32,000 nucleotides of DNA, taken from the NCBI RefSeq assembly GCF_029232205.1, contig NZ_CP107255.1, positions 540,001-572,000 of the forward strand. The letters are read 5' to 3'. The translations under genes were made by a program, and so were the position numbers. The stretch is from Candidatus Saccharimonadota bacterium. Lineage in GTDB: Archaea > Nanohalarchaeota > Nanosalinia > Nanosalinales > Nanosalinaceae. The notes beneath the pieces were generated by a model. It saw only the letters and a program-made list of their open reading frames with translations, was not told where the DNA came from and ran no database searches. Shown piece by piece: positions 7,442-31,526 of this stretch (the first letter of the stretch is position 1; each line of letters starts with the position of its first letter).

Positions 7442-7864
7442 ATGGACGCAAACGTACACGCGGAGAGCAAGAATCCTACGAAAGTAGAAGTAAATGTAAG
7501 AGGCTACAGCTTCGAAATCGACGAACCAGAATCACACGGCGGAACAGGATCAGCACCAAACCCTGTAGAATACGAACTAGGCGCACTTACAGGATGCTTC
7601 AACGTAGTTGCACATGTAGTAGCAAAAGAAATGGGAGTCAACATTGAAAGCCTTGAAATCTACGCATCAGGAGAACTCAACCCTGCAAAATTCCAGGGAA
7701 AAGAAACAGAAGACAGAGCAGGATTCAAACACATCGAAATGAACATAGAAGTAGAATCAGACGCAGACGCAGAAACTGAAAGAGAACTTTTCGAAAAAGT
7801 AGAGGCCCGCTGCCCTGTAAGGGACAACATCAGCCACGAAACACCAGTCCAGCTCAACCTCTAA
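7442..7864 (+). CDS. OsmC/Ohr family peroxiredoxin-like protein
   Basis: GGTGSAPNPVEYELGALTGCF and ARCPV carry the two conserved Cys regions of the OsmC family. The length is 140 aa. Confidence 0.8.
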   Translation: MDANVHAESKNPTKVEVNVRGYSFEIDEPESHGGTGSAPNPVEYELGALTGCFNVVAHVVAKEMGVNIESLEIYASGELNPAKFQGKETEDRAGFKHIEMNIEVESDADAETERELFEKVEARCPVRDNISHETPVQLNL

Positions 7865-21925: not shown

Positions 21926-21970
21926 CCACACCCAAAATTGATTTCAACCAATCAGAGGCAATTATATCCT

Positions 21971-22411
21971 ATGAAATGCATTTACTGCGACGAAAGTTCG
22001 ACACGAGTGGTGGACACTCGAGAATCAGAAGATAAAGTAAGAAGACGCCGAGAATGCAAGGACTGCGGCAGAAGATTCACCACCTACGAGACAGCAGAGA
22101 AACTGGACCTGACAGTTGTAAAAAGAGATAAAGAGGACGAGAAGTTCCAGGAAGAGAAAGTACGCGAAGGAGTTGAAATCGCAGCCAACAAGACCTCCAT
22201 CACCGACGAAGAAGTAGAGGAAATAGTTGAAAACGTCAAGTCGATGTTGAGAGGCCGAAAAAAGATAGAGGCCGAGAAAATCGGGAAAAAAGTGAAAGAA
22301 GAGCTGCAGAAAAGAGACGAAGTGGCCTATATCCGTTTCACATCAGTTTACGACTCTTTCGATGATGTCGAGTCATTCAAGAAAGAGATTGAGGCCTTGA
22401 AAGAGGACTAA
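21971..22411 (+). CDS. nrdR: Transcriptional repressor NrdR (zinc ribbon + ATP-cone)
   Basis: [38 protein letters not shown] is the NrdR zinc-ribbon signature. [19 protein letters not shown] is the conserved ATP-cone end. The start was set at the ATG at 21971 instead of the track's TTG at 21938. Confidence 0.9.
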
Positions 22412-22449: not shown

Positions 22450-25380
22450 ATGGCAAAACTAGAACAAAAGTCAGACTTTAAGCTACCTGTCAAACGCGTA
22501 AAAGGAGAAACCGTTGAAGAGAGATTAACGGAAAACGCTTACGAGAGGATTCTACCGGCCAGATACCTTCTGAAAGATGAAGAAGGTGAAGTGGTAGAGA
22601 CTCCTGAAGAAATGTTTGAGAGAGTAGCCAAGAACGTTGCACAACCAGACAAAAACTACGATGATGTAGACTTCGATAATTCATGGCAGGAATTCTACGA
22701 CCTGATGACCCATCAGAAATTCATGCCAAACTCCCCAACACTGATGAACGCGGGAGCAGACCTACAGCAGCTATCAGCGTGTTTCGTCGTCCACCCTGAA
22801 GACGACATGGATTCAATTTTCAACAAGGTACACGACGCTGCAAAGATCTTCCAGTCCGGAGGAGGCATGGGATACCCATTCCACCTCATGAGGCCTAAAG
22901 GAGACATAGTATCCTCAACAGGAGGAATCGCATCAGGCCCTCTAAGCTTCCAGCAGGTATTCGACACGATGTGTGGAACAATCAAGCAAGGAGGCAAGAG
23001 AAGAGGCGCACAGATGGGAATCATGAAGATCGACCACCCAGACGTCCTCAGATTCATTGTATCAAAGAGAAAGGAAGGCAATTTATCCAACTTCAACATC
23101 TCAGTCGGCCTCACAGAAGATTTCATGGAAGCCGTCAAAAACGACGAAGAATACACACTGATCAACCCAAGAACCGACGAACCATTCGAAGTAGCAAAAG
23201 AAACAGCACAGTTCTACAACAGCGACGAAGAATGGTATCCACAGGCCGAAGGATCAGACACAGGAAAAGACGACAACTTCTGGAGAGACCACGCATCAAG
23301 CTTCGGAGACGAAATTGAAGACTTCGACATCAACCTCGAACCGGGAGAAGAAATGAAGCTCCCAGCAAGATTCATCTGGGAGACACTGATCGACGGCGCA
23401 TGGAGAAACGGAGAACCAGGCCTCTTCATGTACGACGAAGCCAACGACATGCACAGCTTTGATACAGAAAAACACCCAGAACACAGCATCGAGGCCACAA
23501 ACCCTTGTGGAGAACAGCCGCTTGAAAACTACGAGGCATGCAACCTGGGCCACATCAACCTAAGTCTTCTCGTAGACGACCAGGGAGACGGCTCCGCACT
23601 AAGCTTCCCTGAATGGAAACAGGAGAACTCCGACAGATACGACTTCGAAGACGAAGAAGATCTGAAGGCAGCAATGCAGGAGTACATCCAGGAAGCAGTA
23701 GACATGGAAGAATTCGAATACGTAGCCAAGACAGGCCTGCGTTTCCTCGACAACGTAGTCACAATGTCCGACTTCCCACTGGAAGAAATCGAAGAAACAG
23801 TAACAGACCTCAGAAAAGTAGGCCTCGGACTCATGGGATTCGCACAGATGATGATCCAGCTAGGAATCAGATACGGATCAGACGAATCAGTCGCAGCAGC
23901 AGAAGAAATCCAGCGGTTGATCACACTGTTCTCAGTAGAAGAATCCAACAGACTCGCAGAAGTCAGAGGAGAATTCCCAGAATGGGAGAAATCCAAATGG
24001 GCCAACCCAACAGAATACGAAGAATGGTTTGAACAGTACACAGGAGGCCTAGACCCAGAAAACTTTGAAGACGGCCTTAAGATGAGAAACCACAACACAG
24101 TAACCATCGCACCAACCGGAACAACCTCCATGATCGGAAACACTTCCGGAGGATGTGAACCAATCTTCAGCCTGGCCTACTTCAAGAACGTCGCAAAGGA
24201 CATCCAGGGAGAAGACATGCTCGTCGAATTCGACGACTACTTCATCAAGGCCCTTGAAGCCAACAACGTCGACGTAGAAGAAGTCAAGGAAGCAGCACAG
24301 GAGAAAATGGAGAACAACGAATGGGAAGGAGTAGAATCCATCCCCGACGACGTACTGCCTCAACACGTCAAAGAAATCTTTGCAACAGCCAACCAGGTAA
24401 GTGCAAAGGAACACATTGACATTCAGGCAGCATTCCAGAAACACAACCACAGTGGAATCTCCAAAACCTGCAACTTCCCTAACTCAGCAACCAAGGAAGA
24501 CGTCAGAGAGGCCTACATGAGAGCCTACGAACAAGGCGTCAAAGGCATGACAGTCTACAGAGACGGAACAAGAGAAACACAGGTCATGCAGACCAACAAA
24601 GAAAACCAGCTCACCGACATGGACAAAGTCGACATGCTATCCGAAATCATCAACGAATTCGGAGGAGCAGAAGACCTACTCCAATCCAACGAATTCCAGG
24701 AAGTAGTCGGCGACACAGACCTCGAACTACAGGAAGAAGAACTTTCCAAAGAAGTCACACAGGAAGGAATCCAAGCCGACACAGAAGACACAGGGCAGTC
24801 CACAAACATGGGCGGAGGCCACGGAATCAAGGAAAGACCAAAAGTCGCACAGGGAACCACACAGGAAATAGAAACAGCCTACGGAGACCTGTTCGTCACA
24901 ATCAACAACTCAGAGAACAATGGCCCATTCGAAGTATTCGCCAACCTAGGCAAATCAGGAGGCTACACACAGAGCTTCACACAGGCCCTAGGAAGAATGA
25001 CCAGCCTCGCCCTACGTAGTGGCGCATCAGGCAACGACGTCATCAAACAGCTTGACGACATCCGCTCACCGCAGATTGCATGGGACCAGGGAACACAGAT
25101 CCACTCAGTACCAGACGCAATCGCAGAAGCAATGAAACGCCACCTGGAAAACCACAAAGGTAGCCAGCAGACAGTCGACCAGTTCGAAACACAGACCCAA
25201 AAAACACAGAAAAAAGGCACAACACAGCCAAAAACAGAAACAGAAGAACAGGCCGACAAAGGAGACGCAGCAAGCATCGTCAGCGACGGCGGCAACCCAG
25301 AATGCCCAGACTGCGGAGGAATGCTAGTCCTCCAAGAAGGCTGCAAGAAATGCCCAGACTGCGGATGGTCCAAGTGCTAG
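22450..25380 (+). CDS. nrdJ: Class II (adenosylcobalamin-dependent) ribonucleoside-diphosphate/triphosphate reductase
   Basis: [49 protein letters not shown] and the C-terminal zinc ribbon CPDCGG...CKKCPDCGW are all typical of NrdJ. Confidence 0.92.
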
Positions 25381-25512: not shown

Positions 25513-25824
25513 ATGTCAGACACGAAAGGACTCGGCCAATACAAACTATTCCACGTCACAGAAATGAACGAAATCCCAACCACAGAAGAAGTAAGAACCC
25601 TGCTAACACCAGGAGAACCAACCGGCGCAGGAACAAAACAAGACACACTAATAGAAACAGAAACAGACTCTGACTACGACGACAAATACCTAGGCCCAGT
25701 CGGCACAACAATAGACTACGACCAACTCGAACAAACACAACTCGACACCGGAGTAAGGCCAGAAACCAAACAAGCAGAAATCACAGCATACAACAACTCA
25801 AAAGTTGGAGCAGCTTCTGATTGA
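25513..25824 (+). CDS. Hypothetical small acidic T/E/D-rich protein, probably disordered
   Basis: This is a 103-aa ORF with host-like composition. No motif was recognised. Confidence 0.35.
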   Translation: MSDTKGLGQYKLFHVTEMNEIPTTEEVRTLLTPGEPTGAGTKQDTLIETETDSDYDDKYLGPVGTTIDYDQLEQTQLDTGVRPETKQAEITAYNNSKVGAASD

Positions 25825-25863: not shown

Positions 25864-27687
25864 GTGAAATTAATAAGCTTCAACATCAACGACTACCGAT
25901 CTATAGATGATAGCGGAGAATGTTATTTATCGCCTTCAATTACTATTCTAGCAGGTAAGAATGAAGCAGGCAAGACCTCAATACTAGAGGCCTTAGAGAG
26001 CTTTAATTTTAACCAGGAAATTGATGATGGAGCAAAGCCCATAGGTAAAGACGAGAGCCTTCCTAAGATTTCATTAACTTTTGAAATTAGCGAGGCTGAA
26101 AGGTCATTGTTTAATGAGGTTGATAATAGCTTAACAGCTACTATAACGAAGGTTTACCCTAATACTTACAATCTTGATAAAAAACTCGAAGATGTATTTC
26201 CTGGCGTTGAAGATCGGAGGAAAGAGATGTCCGAGAAGTTACAAAGTGTAATAGCAAGCAGAAAAGGCAAGATTGAGAAATTCAGTTCAATAGAAATGCA
26301 AGAATTCTTAGAAGAAGACAATATTAGTAATGCGGTTCCGAAAATAATAGATGAATTAGAAAGAGCTATATCTTCTAATAACAATAATCAGCAGGCAAAT
26401 GAGCTTAAAGAGGTTAAAGAGAAGATAAAGGGCGCCTATAGTGATTTTTTAGACTACAAAGAGTTTGATAAGTTCATAAGGCGAACGGATTTTTCAGAGG
26501 CTTTACCAAAATTCATACTATTCGACTCCGTAGAGGACAATATACCTAATGAAGTTGGATTTTATGATTTGAAGGATAACAATTTTGTTCAAGATCTATC
26601 GAAAATTTCTGATTTGGATCCAGAGATAATAAAACAGGACGAGGATAATAGAGCAAAGAGGAAGCATAAGAAAAAAGTAAATTTAAAGTTAAATGAGGAC
26701 TATGAACAATTCTGGACTCAAGACGCATCTAAATTAAGTGTGGACTGGGACTCCGATAGCTTATATTTTTGGATAGAAGAAGGTGCCGAATATTATGAGC
26801 CTTCTATAAGAAGCAAAGGTAAACAGTGGCACCTATCATTTTACACTAAGCTAACAGCACACGCTAATGAAAGAAATCCCCCCATAGTATTGATAGACGA
26901 TCCTGGTATTCACCTTCATAAAAAGGCCCAGGAGGACATACTGAGGAAGTTGGAATCATTGTCAGAAGAGACTAAAGTAGTTTTCACCACACATTCTCCT
27001 TACCTTATAGATCCGAATAAACTTAACCGAATAAGACTTATTGAGAAAGAGAACTCATCTGGCACTGAAATAAGCAAAATCCATGCGGGTGCAGACTATG
27101 AGACACTTTCTCCTATACTGACTGCAATGGGAGCTGCACCCAGCTTAGGTTTAGAAGCATCCAAGAAAAATACTGTTGTTGTAGAAGGGATTTCAGATTA
27201 TTATTACCTACAAGCCTTTAGAGAACTGATTGAGAAGACTGATTCTGAGCTCAATGTAGTTCCTTCTACAGGAGATACTACTATGCTCCATATAGCACCC
27301 ATTCTTTATGGCTGGGGAACAGACCCAATATTTCTATTGGATGAAGATAGTAGTAACGGTATAGGAGATAAATTAATGAACGAAGAAGAATTGGGAATCT
27401 CCGAAGATAAGATAGTTTCAATTCCAGTAGAAGATGGTGCTATTGAAGATGTCTTCACAGAGAAAGACTTCAAAAAACATGTATTAGAGTCTCCAAAGAA
27501 GCAGTTTAAGTCCAAAAACTCTATGTATATGAAGCGCGCAAATAAAAGCAAGGCACTCTCATCAAAATTATTTTACGAAAAAGTGCTTGAGGAAGATATA
27601 GATCTAGAGGAGACAACTCTGCAAAATATAAAAAAGATCTTCGGGAAAATAGATAGAGCACGAGATTCTACGTCCTATATCGCCTAA
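25864..27687 (+). CDS. OLD-family nuclease (ABC-type ATPase N-domain + Toprim C-domain), stand-alone
   Basis: MKLISFNINDYRSI..ITILAGKNEAGKTSILEAL gives the AAA_15-type N-terminus with Walker A. SKGKQWHLSF is signature-like. PPIVLIDDPGIHLH is Walker B and FTTHSPYLI is the H-loop. The Toprim domain reads NTVVVEGISDYYYLQAF...IFLLDEDSS. The start is a GTG preceded by an AGTGAT Shine-Dalgarno-like element. Confidence 0.8.
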   Translation: MKLISFNINDYRSIDDSGECYLSPSITILAGKNEAGKTSILEALESFNFNQEIDDGAKPIGKDESLPKISLTFEISEAERSLFNEVDNSLTATITKVYPNTYNLDKKLEDVFPGVEDRRKEMSEKLQSVIASRKGKIEKFSSIEMQEFLEEDNISNAVPKIIDELERAISSNNNNQQANELKEVKEKIKGAYSDFLDYKEFDKFIRRTDFSEALPKFILFDSVEDNIPNEVGFYDLKDNNFVQDLSKISDLDPEIIKQDEDNRAKRKHKKKVNLKLNEDYEQFWTQDASKLSVDWDSDSLYFWIEEGAEYYEPSIRSKGKQWHLSFYTKLTAHANERNPPIVLIDDPGIHLHKKAQEDILRKLESLSEETKVVFTTHSPYLIDPNKLNRIRLIEKENSSGTEISKIHAGADYETLSPILTAMGAAPSLGLEASKKNTVVVEGISDYYYLQAFRELIEKTDSELNVVPSTGDTTMLHIAPILYGWGTDPIFLLDEDSSNGIGDKLMNEEELGISEDKIVSIPVEDGAIEDVFTEKDFKKHVLESPKKQFKSKNSMYMKRANKSKALSSKLFYEKVLEEDIDLEETTLQNIKKIFGKIDRARDSTSYIA

Positions 27688-28617
27688 TTATATTGATGGC
27701 GTTTCCAATTCCTCTAAAATTTCCCTCTCATAAAACTCCACTTGATCCTCCGATAAGACTTCCATATCTATCAGTGAGGCCACTAGCTGTACTAGAGTTT
27801 CTACCCTAAACAACTCCTCCATCTCCCGGAAATTATCAGGCAGAGGCCTTTCTTCGGAATAACCTTCGTAGAATTTTTCTCTAGGCCATTCTTTTCCTGG
27901 GTCGTGCATCCAGAAGGAGTTGGCTGCTTTGACTATGTTTCTGGCATCGAGGCCTGAGAATGCGTAGTCCATGTCGATTATGCCGTTGATTTCTCCGTTG
28001 AGGTATATTGTGTTGTCGGGTGTGAAGTCGTCGTGGCAGATTACTGCTTCGAATTCTTCGGGCCACTGGTCTTTTCTTTCTTCGACGAATTTCTGTATTT
28101 TGTCGGCGAGTTCTTCCAGGCCTTCTTCACGCAGTATCTCAAGTTTTTCTTCGAGTTCTGTGAGGTAGTGTTGTTTGAGGCTTCCTTCTTCGAACTCTAC
28201 TATTTCAAGGCCTTTTTCTGTGAATTCTATCCAGCCTTCTTTTTCGAGTGTCGTGTAATTATGGATTTTGGCTAGTTCGCGGCCTGCTTTCCGTGTTTTC
28301 TCTGGTGAGATGTTCTTTTCTCCTGATTGTCCTTCGAGTTTCTCGACTACCGTGTATTTCTGGCCGTTGATTTCTTGGACTTGTTTGGTCACTGCGTGTG
28401 GGATTTTGACTGTGTCTGAGAGAAGTTCGTACATGTTCAGGCAGTGCTTGAGGGATGCATGGTTGTCGTATTCGTCGCCGGAGAACTGGATGATGTAATC
28501 CTTGCCGTCTACCGTGGCCCGATAGGTCTCATGTTTCAATCCTTCAGATATTTCGCTGATTTCCTGGGCCTCTACCCCGAATACTTGTTTGACTGCTTTC
28601 TCTACTTTTTGTTTCAT
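27688..28617 (-). CDS. Aminoglycoside-phosphotransferase-fold (APH/choline-kinase-like) kinase
   Basis: It has a Brenner-type motif VICHDDFTPDNTIY and a metal-binding IIDMDYAFSG. The N-terminal lobe reads ISEGLKHETYRATVDGKDYIIQF. Its stop codon abuts the OLD gene stop (TAATTA). Confidence 0.8.
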   Translation of the reverse strand: MKQKVEKAVKQVFGVEAQEISEISEGLKHETYRATVDGKDYIIQFSGDEYDNHASLKHCLNMYELLSDTVKIPHAVTKQVQEINGQKYTVVEKLEGQSGEKNISPEKTRKAGRELAKIHNYTTLEKEGWIEFTEKGLEIVEFEEGSLKQHYLTELEEKLEILREEGLEELADKIQKFVEERKDQWPEEFEAVICHDDFTPDNTIYLNGEINGIIDMDYAFSGLDARNIVKAANSFWMHDPGKEWPREKFYEGYSEERPLPDNFREMEELFRVETLVQLVASLIDMEVLSEDQVEFYEREILEELETPSI

Positions 28618-28650: not shown

Positions 28651-28658
28651 TTTATAAA
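28651..28658 (+). promoter_or_regulatory. TATA box (TTTATAAA) about 26 bp upstream of the ATG at 28681
   Basis: The position and sequence fit a leaderless promoter for paralog 1. Confidence 0.45.
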
Positions 28659-28680: not shown

Positions 28681-28989
28681 ATGAACAGTCACGATGAATT
28701 GTTGAACCTTGAGTACGTGGCTTATGACCACGTAAGCGACTTTATGGAAAAAACAGCGAACAGAAAAATGATTGATCCTCATGTGGATGTTGGATTCTTC
28801 TATGACGGGGATACTCCGGTTGTAGAGGTTTCTGCCAGCGGCCTTGTTGAAGGAAGTTACGTTGAGAGATATGTTCTTGATGGAATGAGTATTGAGGCCT
28901 TTGAAGAGCTCGGTTATGATGTATGGACTCATGGATTTGAGGACAGTTTTCATTCAGTTTCCCAGATTGGAGAATTGCTTGAAGAATAA
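28681..28989 (+). CDS. Unrecognised ~100-aa acidic protein family, paralog 1 of 3
   Basis: It shares conserved blocks with the ORFs at 29722 and 30089: L-[ED]-Y-x-A-[YW]-D-H-V, P-x-[LV]-x-[VI]-G-[FY], TPV[VL][ED][VL], SY[IV]xxYxL[DE]G[LM]SxxAFE and GYxxWxxxFED. The start was set at the ATG at 28681 (the track uses a TTG at 28672). Confidence 0.7.
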   Translation: MNSHDELLNLEYVAYDHVSDFMEKTANRKMIDPHVDVGFFYDGDTPVVEVSASGLVEGSYVERYVLDGMSIEAFEELGYDVWTHGFEDSFHSVSQIGELLEE

Positions 28990-29010
28990 AAATTGAAAGG
29001 AGAGAAGGCC

Positions 29011-29607
29011 TTAGCGGTCCTCTCCGAGAATTATTTCTCCTGTAATTGAGTCAAGAGCTTTCTTTGAATCTGCTTTGGATAGGCCTGATTCTGATGCTAT
29101 TGCCTCGATTAGTTCTGCCTTGTTCATTGCTTCGACTTTTGCTGGTAGTCTCCAGTCTTCAATGGATGTTCCTGATACTCTGTAGCTGTTTTTCTTTTCC
29201 TGAACTTCTTTTCTGATGCCGACTGCTACGTCTCCGAATCCGTCGCCGTCAAGATCTCCTACGTACATTGAATTTACGTTCTTGGAGAGTTCTGCTCCTG
29301 CCTTGAACTTAGGCCTCTTCTCTGATGTGACTGCTGCAGTTACCTGGCCTCTATTGGTAGAGATGACTTCTGTATCCGTCAGATCCAGGATTCCATCTCC
29401 GTCGCTGTCAGGATCTACCCAGGTCTGGACTGTAAGTGCTACTTTGCCAAGCCTTACGCATCGGTCTGCGTCGTCGCAGTCTCCTGAGTCAATTCCCTGG
29501 TAGAGTGCGTTGCTCTGCATGTTTCCTCTAGCCTCGTATACTGGGTTAGCCAGTGCCATTCCTGTTGCTGTGGCCAGTAGTACGAGAAGTATTGCAAGTT
29601 TTTTCAT
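29011..29607 (-). CDS. Secreted Asp-rich (Ca-binding-like DxDxDG repeats) protein ending in an HU-like N-terminal helix pair
   Basis: The start was set at MKKLAILLVLLATATGMALA (signal peptide, ATG at 29607). DPDSDGDGILD and DLDGDGFGD are present. The last 38 aa, MNKAELIEAIASESGLSKADSKKALDSITGEIILGEDR, closely resemble the first two helices of bacterial HU/IHF. Confidence 0.65.
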   Translation of the reverse strand: MKKLAILLVLLATATGMALANPVYEARGNMQSNALYQGIDSGDCDDADRCVRLGKVALTVQTWVDPDSDGDGILDLTDTEVISTNRGQVTAAVTSEKRPKFKAGAELSKNVNSMYVGDLDGDGFGDVAVGIRKEVQEKKNSYRVSGTSIEDWRLPAKVEAMNKAELIEAIASESGLSKADSKKALDSITGEIILGEDR

Positions 29608-29623
29608 GGTAAGAGCTACAATA

Positions 29624-29635
29624 TGTAGAGAATCT
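29624..29635. repeat. Copy 1 of the 12-bp direct repeat TGTAGAGAATCT
   Basis: It is a perfect match to 29672-29683. It lies between a TATAAA (29635-29640) and the start of the minus-strand secreted-protein gene. Confidence 0.6.
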
Positions 29636-29671
29636 ATAAATCGATATCTGTTGATTATATTTAGGATCTGG

Positions 29672-29683
29672 TGTAGAGAATCT
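29672..29683. repeat. Copy 2 of the 12-bp direct repeat TGTAGAGAATCT
   Basis: It is a perfect match to 29624-29635. It lies immediately upstream of the TATA-like ATTAAAA (29692-29698) of paralog 2. Confidence 0.6.
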
Positions 29684-29721
29684 TTTCTCCGATTAAAAGA
29701 GTTGGTGGGTACTGCAGTTTT

Positions 29722-30030
29722 ATGGACGCAGAGGAGGAACTCATGGATCTTGATTATGCGGCCTATGATCATGTATTAGAGCTTGAAGATGATCTTGAGG
29801 AACGTAGAATCAGAGATCCAGATCTATATGTCGGATTTCACTATGAGGAAGATACTCCTGTAGTTGATGTAGCAGCTCATGGAAAGAAAAAGTCGTATAT
29901 TGATAGCTATCGTTTAGAAGGCTTATCTGTAGGCGCATTCGAACAGCTAGGTTATGATATCTGGCTTGACACCTTTGAAGATACTTTCAAGAGTACTGAA
30001 GATATAGGCAGACATCTTGAAAGATTTTAA
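29722..30030 (+). CDS. Unrecognised ~100-aa acidic protein family, paralog 2 of 3
   Basis: See paralog 1 for the shared blocks. The TATA-like ATTAAAA lies about 27 bp upstream of the ATG. Confidence 0.7.
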   Translation: MDAEEELMDLDYAAYDHVLELEDDLEERRIRDPDLYVGFHYEEDTPVVDVAAHGKKKSYIDSYRLEGLSVGAFEQLGYDIWLDTFEDTFKSTEDIGRHLERF

Positions 30031-30088
30031 ACTTATTTTTCTTGTTTGAACAGATAAGTGTATAAGCTTTCACTCCTATAGAGGAGTA

Positions 30089-30394
30089 ATGGATGCATTC
30101 GATGAAATAGAGTCGTTAGACTACTCAGCATGGGATCACGTCGTAGATTTTAATCTCAAGCTGGAGCTGGCAGATATAGAAGAGCCACAGCTTTACATTG
30201 GATATCACGATGAAGAAGGCACGCCAGTACTAGACTTGATAGCTAGAGGGCCTATCAATTCGTATATCAACAGCTACAGGCTTGACGGCCTCAGTATGGA
30301 GGCCTTTGAGGAGGAAGGATACAGGTCCTGGAAAGAAACTTTTGAGGACATGTATGGAGAGTCAAGGCCTCTGGAAGATTTTTTCGAAGAATAG
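30089..30394 (+). CDS. Unrecognised ~100-aa acidic protein family, paralog 3 of 3
   Basis: See paralog 1 for the shared blocks. By eye it is roughly 45% identical to paralog 2. TATAAG (30061-30066) lies about 25 bp upstream of the ATG. Confidence 0.7.
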   Translation: MDAFDEIESLDYSAWDHVVDFNLKLELADIEEPQLYIGYHDEEGTPVLDLIARGPINSYINSYRLDGLSMEAFEEEGYRSWKETFEDMYGESRPLEDFFEE

Positions 30395-30437: not shown

Positions 30438-31526
30438 TTATTTTTCTGTACTGAAGCTGTATTCTCCTTTCAGGAACGGTATTCTGTTTTCCATTGTTTT
30501 CTTGAATCGCTGGCCCTGTAGGCCTTCTAATTCTTGCATTTCTTCTCTAAATCCGTTGAGTTGTTCGGCTATTTTATCGCCGGCGTTTTCCTGGTACTGG
30601 GAGAATTCGTTGTAGCTGGCTCTTGTGTTTGAGAGATGGTTTTCGAATCCTTCCTGAAAACGGCCTTTCATGAAGTATGTTACGGCCTGTGCCATTGTTT
30701 CATCTCTGACATCAAAGTCTTCTAGTCCAAAGATATCAGTCATAAGGCCTGCTGCGTATTCGAATTCCTGTACATACTGATGGAGATCTACTTCGTGTCT
30801 TCTGTTTTCGTGGTATGCGTCAAGTATTCCTGCGTCGTATATTTCGTCGAGTACAAGGAGTGATAGGCCTGCTACAAGATCGTGTTTTACTTCTGGTACT
30901 TCTGTATCTTCTACTATTTCCCGATATTCTTCCGGTGCATTGTAGTCGTAGATTGTGGCGAGATCTCTTACTTTATCGGCATCATCTATCAGGGCCTCTA
31001 CGTTGTTTTTGTGCATTGTTTCATGTGCTGCTGTCTCTGCTGCTGGAGTTCCTTCCGTTGCTTTCCCTGATTTTCTGTAAAGTGTTGATTTGTCTTGTTG
31101 AAATGTGTGGGTGCCGGCGTATTTTTTATCAGTATCTTCTAGTGTGGTCATTTTTGGAGGTTTTATCTTCTGGCCGGGGATGAAGCCATCGATGTACTGT
31201 GCTGCGGCTTCGTGCAGGTCGTCCAGAAATCCTTCAGGTAGCTGGCCTTTTTCCTCTACATGGCTGATGTTTTGCGTGGAGGTATGCAGCATTGCAAGTC
31301 TGTCGGTAGTGTAAGGCGCTCTCTGCATATCCTTGACTCTTTGCTGTACTGCTTCAAGCTCTTCATCTGTATGTGAGCCTCCGTTAACTTTTCTGGAAAT
31401 ATGCTTTGATTCTCTTCTTTCACGTCCGTAGAATCCTGCCGGCCTCAACTGGAACTCGTTGGCCCATCGGGATAACTCCTCTTCCAGGTCAGGTTCATCT
31501 ACTTCGAAAAACAAACTGGCCGGCAT
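30438..31526 (-). CDS. Hypothetical protein with a single HExxH motif (AAHETMH), possible zinc metallopeptidase
   Basis: This is a 362-aa ORF with no signal peptide or TM helix and an HExxH at about residue 170. No third-ligand motif was recognised. An AT-rich TATA-like element lies about 25 bp upstream of the ATG. Confidence 0.5.
   Translation of the reverse strand: MPASLFFEVDEPDLEEELSRWANEFQLRPAGFYGRERRESKHISRKVNGGSHTDEELEAVQQRVKDMQRAPYTTDRLAMLHTSTQNISHVEEKGQLPEGFLDDLHEAAAQYIDGFIPGQKIKPPKMTTLEDTDKKYAGTHTFQQDKSTLYRKSGKATEGTPAAETAAHETMHKNNVEALIDDADKVRDLATIYDYNAPEEYREIVEDTEVPEVKHDLVAGLSLLVLDEIYDAGILDAYHENRRHEVDLHQYVQEFEYAAGLMTDIFGLEDFDVRDETMAQAVTYFMKGRFQEGFENHLSNTRASYNEFSQYQENAGDKIAEQLNGFREEMQELEGLQGQRFKKTMENRIPFLKGEYSFSTEK

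Follow-up and report, generated by a model that had tools for sequence, protein, structure and literature searches.

A small hyper-acidic protein family with three diverged paralogs in the nanohaloarchaeon Candidatus Nanohalovita haloferacivicina

Three diverged paralogs of an undescribed family

The 32,000-nucleotide stretch analysed here (positions 540,001 to 572,000 of NZ_CP107255.1, hereafter the window) belongs to the 1,046,959-bp contig of Candidatus (Ca.) Nanohalovita haloferacivicina, a cultivated nanohaloarchaeon, and carries three small genes whose products form a previously undescribed protein family. These genes are true diverged paralogs and real coding genes, and the family is confined to the Nanohaloarchaeota, a phylum of DPANN archaea, in which it is patchily distributed. 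The explanation favoured here, with moderate confidence, is that the family is a phylum-restricted, cytoplasmic and non-enzymatic binding protein that was anciently triplicated and subfunctionalised in one lineage; the binding or adaptor role itself is proposed with moderate to low confidence. The three genes are the following:

28681..28989, + strand: paralog 1 (class A), 102 aa, net charge −18.6 per 100 aa, family entry P0009
29722..30030, + strand: paralog 2 (class B), 102 aa, identical to family entry P0001
30089..30394, + strand: paralog 3 (class C), 101 aa, identical to family entry P0002

An initial annotation of this DNA had described three open reading frames (ORFs) of these lengths and positions that align end to end, with an identity judged by eye as roughly 35-50%, and all of them were found on the + strand. 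Their alignment is full-length with a single 1-residue gap. The computed identities agree with the estimate (48% between paralogs 1 and 2, 39% between 1 and 3, and 48% between 2 and 3), and the weakest pair gives a BLASTP E value of 9e-23. Every one of the invariant blocks listed in that annotation (L.Y.A.DHV, TPV, SY...Y.L.G.S, AFE, GY..W and FED) is present in the three proteins. A hidden Markov model (HMM) search of all window ORFs of at least 40 aa returned exactly three copies, and the whole contig also gave three family matches.

Concerning the deposited gene models, the GenBank version of paralog 1 (HBNXNv_0641) has only 81 aa and starts at Met22, which drops most of the first predicted helix and the conserved L.Y.AYDHV motif. 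This start is very probably wrong and the 102-aa start at 28681 is supported, because the class A orthologs always begin with MN(S/T/N)H(D/E)EL, a TATA-like box is located 28 nt upstream of the ATG at 28681, and the structure model agrees with the longer protein.

Distribution and absence of known relatives

The family is rare. A profile search of 5.8 billion proteins recovered just 12 clusters, three of them on the Ca. Nanohalovita haloferacivicina contig, and a HMMER scan of 1.84 billion cluster representatives gave 20 matches at E ≤ 1e-3, about 16 of which are credible. The relatives total about 30 among billions of proteins. Pattern scans of genome and metagenome contigs returned one real locus (L009; the related loci are numbered L001 to L015 below) and two spurious short matches. 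The named carriers are Nanohalovita, Ca. Nanosalina sp. VS9-1 and a Ca. Nanohalobium metagenome-assembled genome (MAG), and the GC content of every carrier locus fetched is 35-48%. In the most divergent carrier contig, L015 (35% GC), a housekeeping phosphomannomutase served as a marker; all its named relatives are nanohaloarchaeal, and the L014 contig carries one of its relatives. Since the carriers are nanohaloarchaeal, and this phosphomannomutase has more than 260 relatives among the candidates scored versus about 30 for the acidic family, the family is restricted to the Nanohaloarchaeota and is patchy inside the phylum.

The initial annotation could not assign these proteins to any family, and the profile searches bear this out. 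Pfam-A and NCBIfam gave 0 matches at E ≤ 10 for paralogs 1-3. When 23 members were scanned one by one against the same databases, no family recurred, and the three weak matches, each to a single member, fell in three different families at chance level (DUF7325, 0.018; DUF2553, 0.019; Rpb5_N, 0.061). PHROGs and PADLOC gave no recurrent match for these 23 members either. Sequence-profile searches of the PDB with two alignments (A2 and A3) found nothing below E = 0.3, and the best candidates (RoxP, histidine acid phosphatase, Pcc1 and PadR, with best E values of 0.3-0.8) were discarded as noise. Moreover, homologs are absent from the IMG/VR viral contigs, the INPHARED phages and the PLSDB plasmids.

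Three ortholog classes under purifying selection

The three window copies correspond to three ortholog classes in related contigs, with the following members:

Class A: W_c1 (window), L001_b, L003_b, L008_c, and others
Class B: W_c2 (window) and L008_a; the single copies of L009 and P0011 are B-like
Class C: W_c3 (window), L001_a, L003_a, L008_b, and others

In the neighbour-joining tree, class C has a bootstrap value of 100 and class A of 78, and class B is the one closest to the single-copy relatives L009 and P0011. The duplications are older than the split of these genomes, because each class holds orthologs from several of them. Recent duplication, gene conversion and mobile-element borders are not indicated: no residual DNA repeat is left between the copies beyond the conserved motif block, and neither tRNA genes nor Rfam matches were found at the locus, so that there is no sign of a recent duplication or of a mobile element. 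Outside the Nanohalovita clade, the Ca. Nanohalobium MAG (L010) carries a full-length member at 693-971 followed by a truncated copy at 1146-1307, of 53 aa and covering profile positions 2-51; tandem duplication and decay have thus also taken place in that lineage.

The ratio of nonsynonymous to synonymous substitution rates (dN/dS) and the amino acid identity were calculated between window genes and their L001 orthologs, including three flanking genes:

Class A: dN/dS 0.10, identity 66%
Class C: dN/dS 0.22, identity 70%
APH (flank): dN/dS 0.13, identity 90%
Ribonucleotide reductase, RNR (flank): dN/dS 0.11, identity 91%
NrdR (flank): dN/dS 0.03, identity 97%

The family genes overall show dN/dS values of 0.09-0.25 and are under purifying selection; values of 0.1-0.25 do not indicate positive selection or an arms race. 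At the protein level, they change 3-4 times faster than the flanking genes, and the nucleotide similarity between loci ends exactly at the APH gene. Eight positions are conserved inside classes A and C yet differ between them, besides 28 positions that the two classes share. These class-specific residues are consistent with subfunctionalisation.

Promoter elements

Each paralog is preceded by its own TATA-like box. The elements found around the three starts are:

28651..28658, + strand: TATA-like box of paralog 1, TTTATAAA, with the TAWAA core starting at −28
29692..29699, + strand: TATA-like box of paralog 2, ATTAAAAG, with the TAAAA core starting at −28
30033..30047, + strand: T-rich stretch directly after the paralog 2 stop, between paralogs 2 and 3, TTATTTTTCTTGTTT, with T5 at 30036-30040
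30060..30066, + strand: TATA-like box of paralog 3, GTATAAG, with the TATAA core starting at −28
30081-30086, + strand: Shine-Dalgarno (SD)-like GAGGAG, two nt before the paralog 3 ATG

In the three genes, the TAWAA core begins exactly 28 nt before the ATG (−28 to −24). Over the window, TAWAA occurs at a frequency of 0.00175 per position, so three cores at one offset are far beyond chance. The box of paralog 1 sits inside a 63-bp divergent intergenic region with the APH kinase gene on the other side. Furthermore, an AT-rich box occupies this offset in orthologs of all three classes, although their surroundings have diverged: TTATAAAG in the class A orthologs of L001, L003 and L008, CCTATAAGAG in the class B ortholog of L008, and GATATAT in the class C orthologs. 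The distance from the TATA box to the transcription start site is about 26-27 nt in archaea. Since a TATA box at −28 fits this distance, each of the three most likely forms a leaderless or near-leaderless unit of its own, as far as can be read from the DNA.

The initial annotation had proposed an own TATA-like box and leaderless transcription for each gene. The cores at −28 and their position in the orthologs sustain this proposal, whereas the layout is not special to the trio: a similar geometry is found in the window at the OLD gene (−29), the HExxH gene (−28) and the gene at 7442 (−28), and for this reason it is regarded as the normal promoter layout of this genome. The T-rich stretch TTATTTTTCTTGTTT looks like the oligo-T terminators of archaea and is a candidate terminator for paralog 2. 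In paralog 3, the SD-like GAGGAG coexists with the TATA box at −28, and AGGAG is kept there in three of the four class C genes, including that of the window; because of this, initiation may work differently in class C than in classes A and B. The RNA-seq data of the genome paper cover another organism, SVXNc (PMC10266531), no expression data were found in that paper or its supplements, and the locus tags are absent from the supplements.

Predicted fold and conserved residues

Two independent AlphaFold2 runs, with different target paralogs and different alignments, gave the same topology, alpha-beta-beta-beta-alpha-beta. The model of paralog 1 has a pLDDT (predicted local distance difference test) of 85.9 and a pTM (predicted template modelling score) of 0.75, and that of paralog 2 reaches 81.5 and 0.70, respectively. 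The predicted elements are a helix at residues 3-27, strands at 34-42, 45-53 and approximately 58-65, a second helix at approximately 70-89 and a last strand at approximately 91-98. Foldseek searches with both models found no significant structural match, and the best match in BFVD was an uncharacterised giant-virus protein (E 2e-3). The check with AlphaFold and Foldseek that the initial annotation had suggested thus ends in a confident shared model without a significant match to a known structure.

Regarding conservation, only Y63, L65 and W81 are conserved in at least 90% of the 23 members; F73 and Y78 are mostly kept, and the other hydrophobic or aromatic positions less so. D16, H17, T45-P46-V47 and E86-D87 are invariant or nearly so in the 12 close members. 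In distant members, D16-H17 is replaced by E-H, D-Q, H-Q, E-F or D-E. The sequences show neither a signal peptide nor a hydrophobic segment, and the N-terminus is an acidic helix.

The composition is extreme as well. Per 100 residues, the net charge of paralogs 1-3 ranges from −18.6 to −21.8 and the aromatics amount to 12.7-14.9%. Paralog 3 is the most acidic (−21.8 per 100 aa) and the most aromatic (14.9%) of them. Among the 33 window proteins, the three are within the five most acidic and are the top three in aromatic content. The neighbouring enzymes have a net charge of about −10 per 100 aa.

Proposed role

These features point to a non-enzymatic binding module, because only aromatic or hydrophobic positions are kept family-wide, there is no signal peptide, and both the acidity and the aromatic content are extreme. 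According to the proposed scenario, the ancestor of the family was a single stand-alone gene in the Nanohaloarchaeota, and a triplication in the Nanohalovita lineage gave rise to classes A, B and C, which purifying selection has retained with class-specific residues, indicating subfunctionalisation. Each copy would be its own transcription unit, driven by the TATA box with its core at −28 and yielding a leaderless or near-leaderless mRNA. The product is a hyper-acidic, aromatic-rich cytoplasmic domain of about 100 aa, without signal peptide or conserved catalytic residues, that may contact other macromolecules, most likely proteins, via its conserved exposed acidic and aromatic surfaces. The three classes could then recognise different partners or different states.

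Several points weigh against this scenario. The binding function is deduced from negative evidence (no catalytic motif and no family match) together with composition. The high acidity is partly a background trait of halophiles, and D16-H17 and T-P-V are invariant in the close clade, where a clade-specific catalytic or ligand-binding role is possible. As for transcription, the leaderless units are proposed from promoter geometry, and paralog 3 has the SD-like GAGGAG two nt before its ATG.

It is rather unlikely, but worth considering, that A, B and C co-assemble as a hetero-oligomeric structural or regulatory particle, with the ancestral single-copy protein acting as a homo-oligomer. In fact, A, B and C are retained together in at least two genomes (the window and L008), A and C in two more, and each class has conserved residues of its own on a shared core. 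The proteins also conserve more aromatics than a 100-aa core needs, and in the AlphaFold2 models the C-terminal edge strand could pair between subunits. Nevertheless, the genes are separate transcription units at shuffled positions with no fixed operon, and L001 and L003 show just A and C on the DNA available.

Gene neighbourhood

The genes that the initial annotation had recognised around the trio (for an OLD nuclease, an APH-like kinase, a secreted HU-tailed protein, an HExxH protein and an acidic helical one) were all recovered, the first of them as an OLD-like ATPase-TOPRIM protein. The adjoining genes are:

25864-27687, + strand: OLD/AriA-like ATPase-TOPRIM gene (PADLOC AriA 3e-22, Old 5e-20)
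27688..28617, − strand: APH/fructosamine-kinase-like gene, divergent from paralog 1
29011..29610, − strand: secreted FG-GAP protein with a C-terminal fragment of the HU N-terminus, between paralog 1 and paralogs 2-3
30438..31526, − strand: protein of 362 aa that contains an HETMH motif and matches nothing in Pfam or PADLOC; convergent with paralog 3

The gene order varies within the Nanohalovita clade:

Window: APH(−), A, FG-GAP/HU(−), B, C, HExxH(−)
L001: APH(−), C, A, 144-aa gene(−)
L003-L007: APH(−), C, A, FG-GAP/HU(−), LUD
L008: FG-GAP/HU(−), B, C, A, HExxH(−)

The APH gene, with 87-90% amino acid identity to its orthologs, flanks the family genes on their left side in the window, L001/L002 and L003-L007. 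The FG-GAP/HU gene adjoins the family genes in L003-L007 and L008 and is absent from L001 and from the distant loci. With the order shuffled, the adjacency to APH, FG-GAP/HU or HExxH in this clade is indistinguishable from local synteny.

Outside the Nanohalovita clade, the family gene is single-copy and lies in unrelated contexts, mostly with housekeeping or regulatory neighbours (L009-L015):

L009: flanked by a secreted Beta_propel protein and by a 365-aa protein without assignment
L010: next to its truncated second copy and a flavodoxin-like gene
L011 and L014: next to a DUF7344 winged helix-turn-helix (wHTH) gene
L012 and L015: near an HVO_2718-like HTH gene, which is the immediate upstream neighbour in L015 and the second gene upstream in L012
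L013: flanked by small unassigned genes

Across the loci of the Nanohalovita clade and L009-L015, no neighbour is conserved throughout the family. The DUF7344 winged-helix gene directly adjoins the family gene in two rearranged related genomes (L011 6001-6744 and L014 5001-5581), the pair being in tandem in one of them and convergent with overlapping ends in the other, and outside the Nanohalovita clade no other neighbour has persisted through a rearrangement.

Some of the adjoining genes deserve a comment of their own. The secreted FG-GAP/HU protein carries the signal peptide MKKLAILLVLLATATGMALA, and the match of its last approximately 32 residues to bacterial HU is limited to the N-terminal helices (Pfam positions 1-32 of 90). 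L003-L007 conserve this odd fusion, and a C-terminal fragment of the ortholog lies on the L008 contig. The HETMH protein is another real orphan gene, with an ortholog in L008 (67% identity, dN/dS 0.10).

The OLD gene is a strain-specific insertion, because it is absent from the syntenic loci L001 and L003 and has a low GC content (36-40% in its region vs 44% in the window); in L001 and L003, the slot between the orf103 ortholog and APH holds a 166-aa gene. It is a lone defence gene, probably acquired horizontally. The genome paper reports no genomic islands in this strain (PMC10266531). Regarding the other neighbours, the orf103, APH, FG-GAP/HU, HExxH and acidic helical proteins match no defence model in PADLOC.

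Further upstream, an NrdR-type repressor with Zn ribbon and ATP-cone (21938-22411, +) is encoded directly before a 976-aa ribonucleotide reductase (22450-25380, +), an arrangement that L001 conserves. As a regulator, NrdR belongs mainly to bacteria, and its presence in a DPANN archaeon may merit attention. Downstream of the reductase, the ORF at 25513-25824 (+), of 103 aa, has a dN/dS of 0.65 and 72% identity with its L001 ortholog, while the flanking genes reach 90-97% identity; either the constraint on this ORF is very relaxed, or it may not be a normal protein-coding gene.

Alternative readings of the family

Another explanation, distinctly unlikely on the present evidence, is that the proteins are nucleic-acid mimics or chaperones for basic proteins, whose hyper-acidic surface sequesters DNA- or RNA-binding proteins such as HU-like or small wHTH proteins. 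They are small and non-enzymatic, and their net charge of −19 to −22 per 100 aa is about twice that of the neighbouring enzymes. Small HTH genes lie near distant members (DUF7344 in L011 and L014 despite rearrangement, HVO_2718-like in L015 and L012), and the protein with the HU fragment adjoins the family in the clade of the window. However, acidity is not specific in a salt-in halophile, and another neighbour protein reaches −22.5 per 100 aa. HTH genes are abundant, so their adjacency may be due to chance. No structural match to known mimics was found, and the hhalign comparison with the HU-binding YciU/HI1450 gave a probability of 0.2%, a value that is indicative only. Membership in the YciU/HI1450 family of DNA mimics was discarded on this comparison and on the lack of a match in Pfam, which includes the YciU family.

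A bolder version of the same idea, to which little probability is given, is that nanohaloarchaea, as obligate symbionts of haloarchaea, use a new kind of small fold as a hyper-acidic effector or mimic whose classes hit different partners. It could, for example, titrate basic proteins that bind nucleic acids, whether those of the nanohaloarchaeon itself or, via a cell-cell bridge, those of the host. Room for this reading is left by the lack of relatives in sequence and structure, the extremes of charge and of aromatic content, the confinement to a symbiotic phylum and the class-specific conserved surfaces.

The initial annotation had suggested an immunity, antitoxin or anti-defence array, in which the paralogs neutralise the neighbouring HExxH, FG-GAP/HU or OLD proteins or counter host or viral defences. 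Some features of the locus would fit: small, diverged and very acidic paralogs lie within about 1.7 kb (only paralogs 2 and 3 being directly in tandem), the copies in the Nanohalovita clade adjoin a secreted FG-GAP and/or HExxH protein, an OLD/AriA-like defence gene is about 1 kb away, the family diverges 3-4 times faster than the flanking housekeeping genes, and gene order and local copy number vary among related genomes. Nevertheless, this reading is unsupported, because no neighbour is conserved across the family and the OLD gene is a strain-specific insertion, and it is now considered improbable. The comparison of neighbourhoods that the annotation had asked for gave no conserved partner, the distant members (L009-L015) being single-copy with unrelated neighbours, so that the link to the adjacent genes does not hold. 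The conserved adjacency expected of toxin-antitoxin (TA) or polymorphic-toxin systems is not observed, since neighbours differ among these loci, and in the window the genes have separate promoters and are convergent or divergent with those around them. In particular, a conserved linkage with HExxH proteins was discarded because the HETMH protein of the window shows no homology to either the HEMGH protein of L009 or the 365-aa neighbour there, and one with OLD because OLD is low in GC and missing from the syntenic loci. Besides, neither PADLOC nor PHROGs gave recurrent matches, no member was found in the viral, phage and plasmid collections, the stable ortholog classes (dN/dS 0.1-0.25) are not those of a fast-turnover array, and each gene has a promoter of its own and an orientation different from that of the putative toxin genes.

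Finally, a small enzyme or ligand binder using the D-H pair of helix 1 together with T-P-V and the E/D residues, all of them (nearly) invariant in the 12 close members, is very improbable, as these positions are not kept in distant members, family-wide conservation is limited to hydrophobic or aromatic core positions, and no enzyme family matches.

Comparison with known systems

Concerning known folds, the top Foldseek matches in the PDB for both models were HPF and YfiA (protein Y). Like the family, these are two-layer alpha/beta domains of about 95-100 aa, with two helices on a small antiparallel sheet. However, the match is not significant (E 0.05-0.1, TM 0.34-0.39, root mean square deviation 8-10 Å). 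HPF is basic and rRNA-binding whereas the family is hyper-acidic (isoelectric point 4.05-4.2), there is no sequence similarity, and the order of elements in HPF is beta-alpha-beta-beta-beta-alpha, unlike that of the family. Membership was rejected on the E values, the empty PDB sequence search and the isoelectric point. Weak matches on the motif of three strands, helix and strand also recall the beta-beta-beta-alpha-beta core of RNase-H-like and ASKHA proteins (Hsp70 nucleotide-binding domain, hexokinase, RNase HI, Argonaute PIWI and pantothenate kinase, among others), but all of them have E ≥ 0.1 and TM < 0.4, the family adds a long N-terminal helix, and no catalytic acidic triad is kept family-wide. 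A resemblance to the topology of stand-alone HicB/UPF0150-type domains is taken as a lead only. HicB was not among the top Foldseek matches, and the family has no HicA-like partner gene.

Acidic mimics and inhibitors such as YciU/HI1450, T7 Ocr and T7 Gp1.2 are likewise small, strongly acidic and non-enzymatic, and T7 Gp1.2 gave a weak, insignificant structural match (TM 0.34/0.40). Nevertheless, there is no sequence relationship with them, the family is absent from viruses and plasmids, and its acidity partly reflects the halophile background. The immunity arrays of polymorphic-toxin and TA systems share with this locus the short, diverged paralogs clustered in a rearrangement-prone segment. 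On the other hand, the family has no conserved toxin partner, its classes are stable, its genes have their own promoters, and it is single-copy in other lineages. A useful negative is that a small acidic paralog array near an OLD nuclease is here probably not an immunity or anti-defence module.

In the genome of Ca. Nanohalovita haloferacivicina, 37% of the proteins are annotated as hypothetical (PMC10266531). As a genomic feature, the family described here is one more lineage-specific orphan among the hundreds present in DPANN genomes; it is no new kind of system and opens no long-standing question. It could deserve a DUF entry, and one gene start in the published annotation is corrected. A compact, confidently modelled domain in three naturally diverged versions is convenient for finding partners, and if its role were worked out, one defined piece would be added to the "dark" proteome of DPANN symbionts. 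As other DPANN orphans, it is a small-protein family restricted to one phylum and expanded by duplication, but it is better defined than most of them through its reproducible, confident predicted fold, its purifying selection, its three old classes and its mapped promoter elements.

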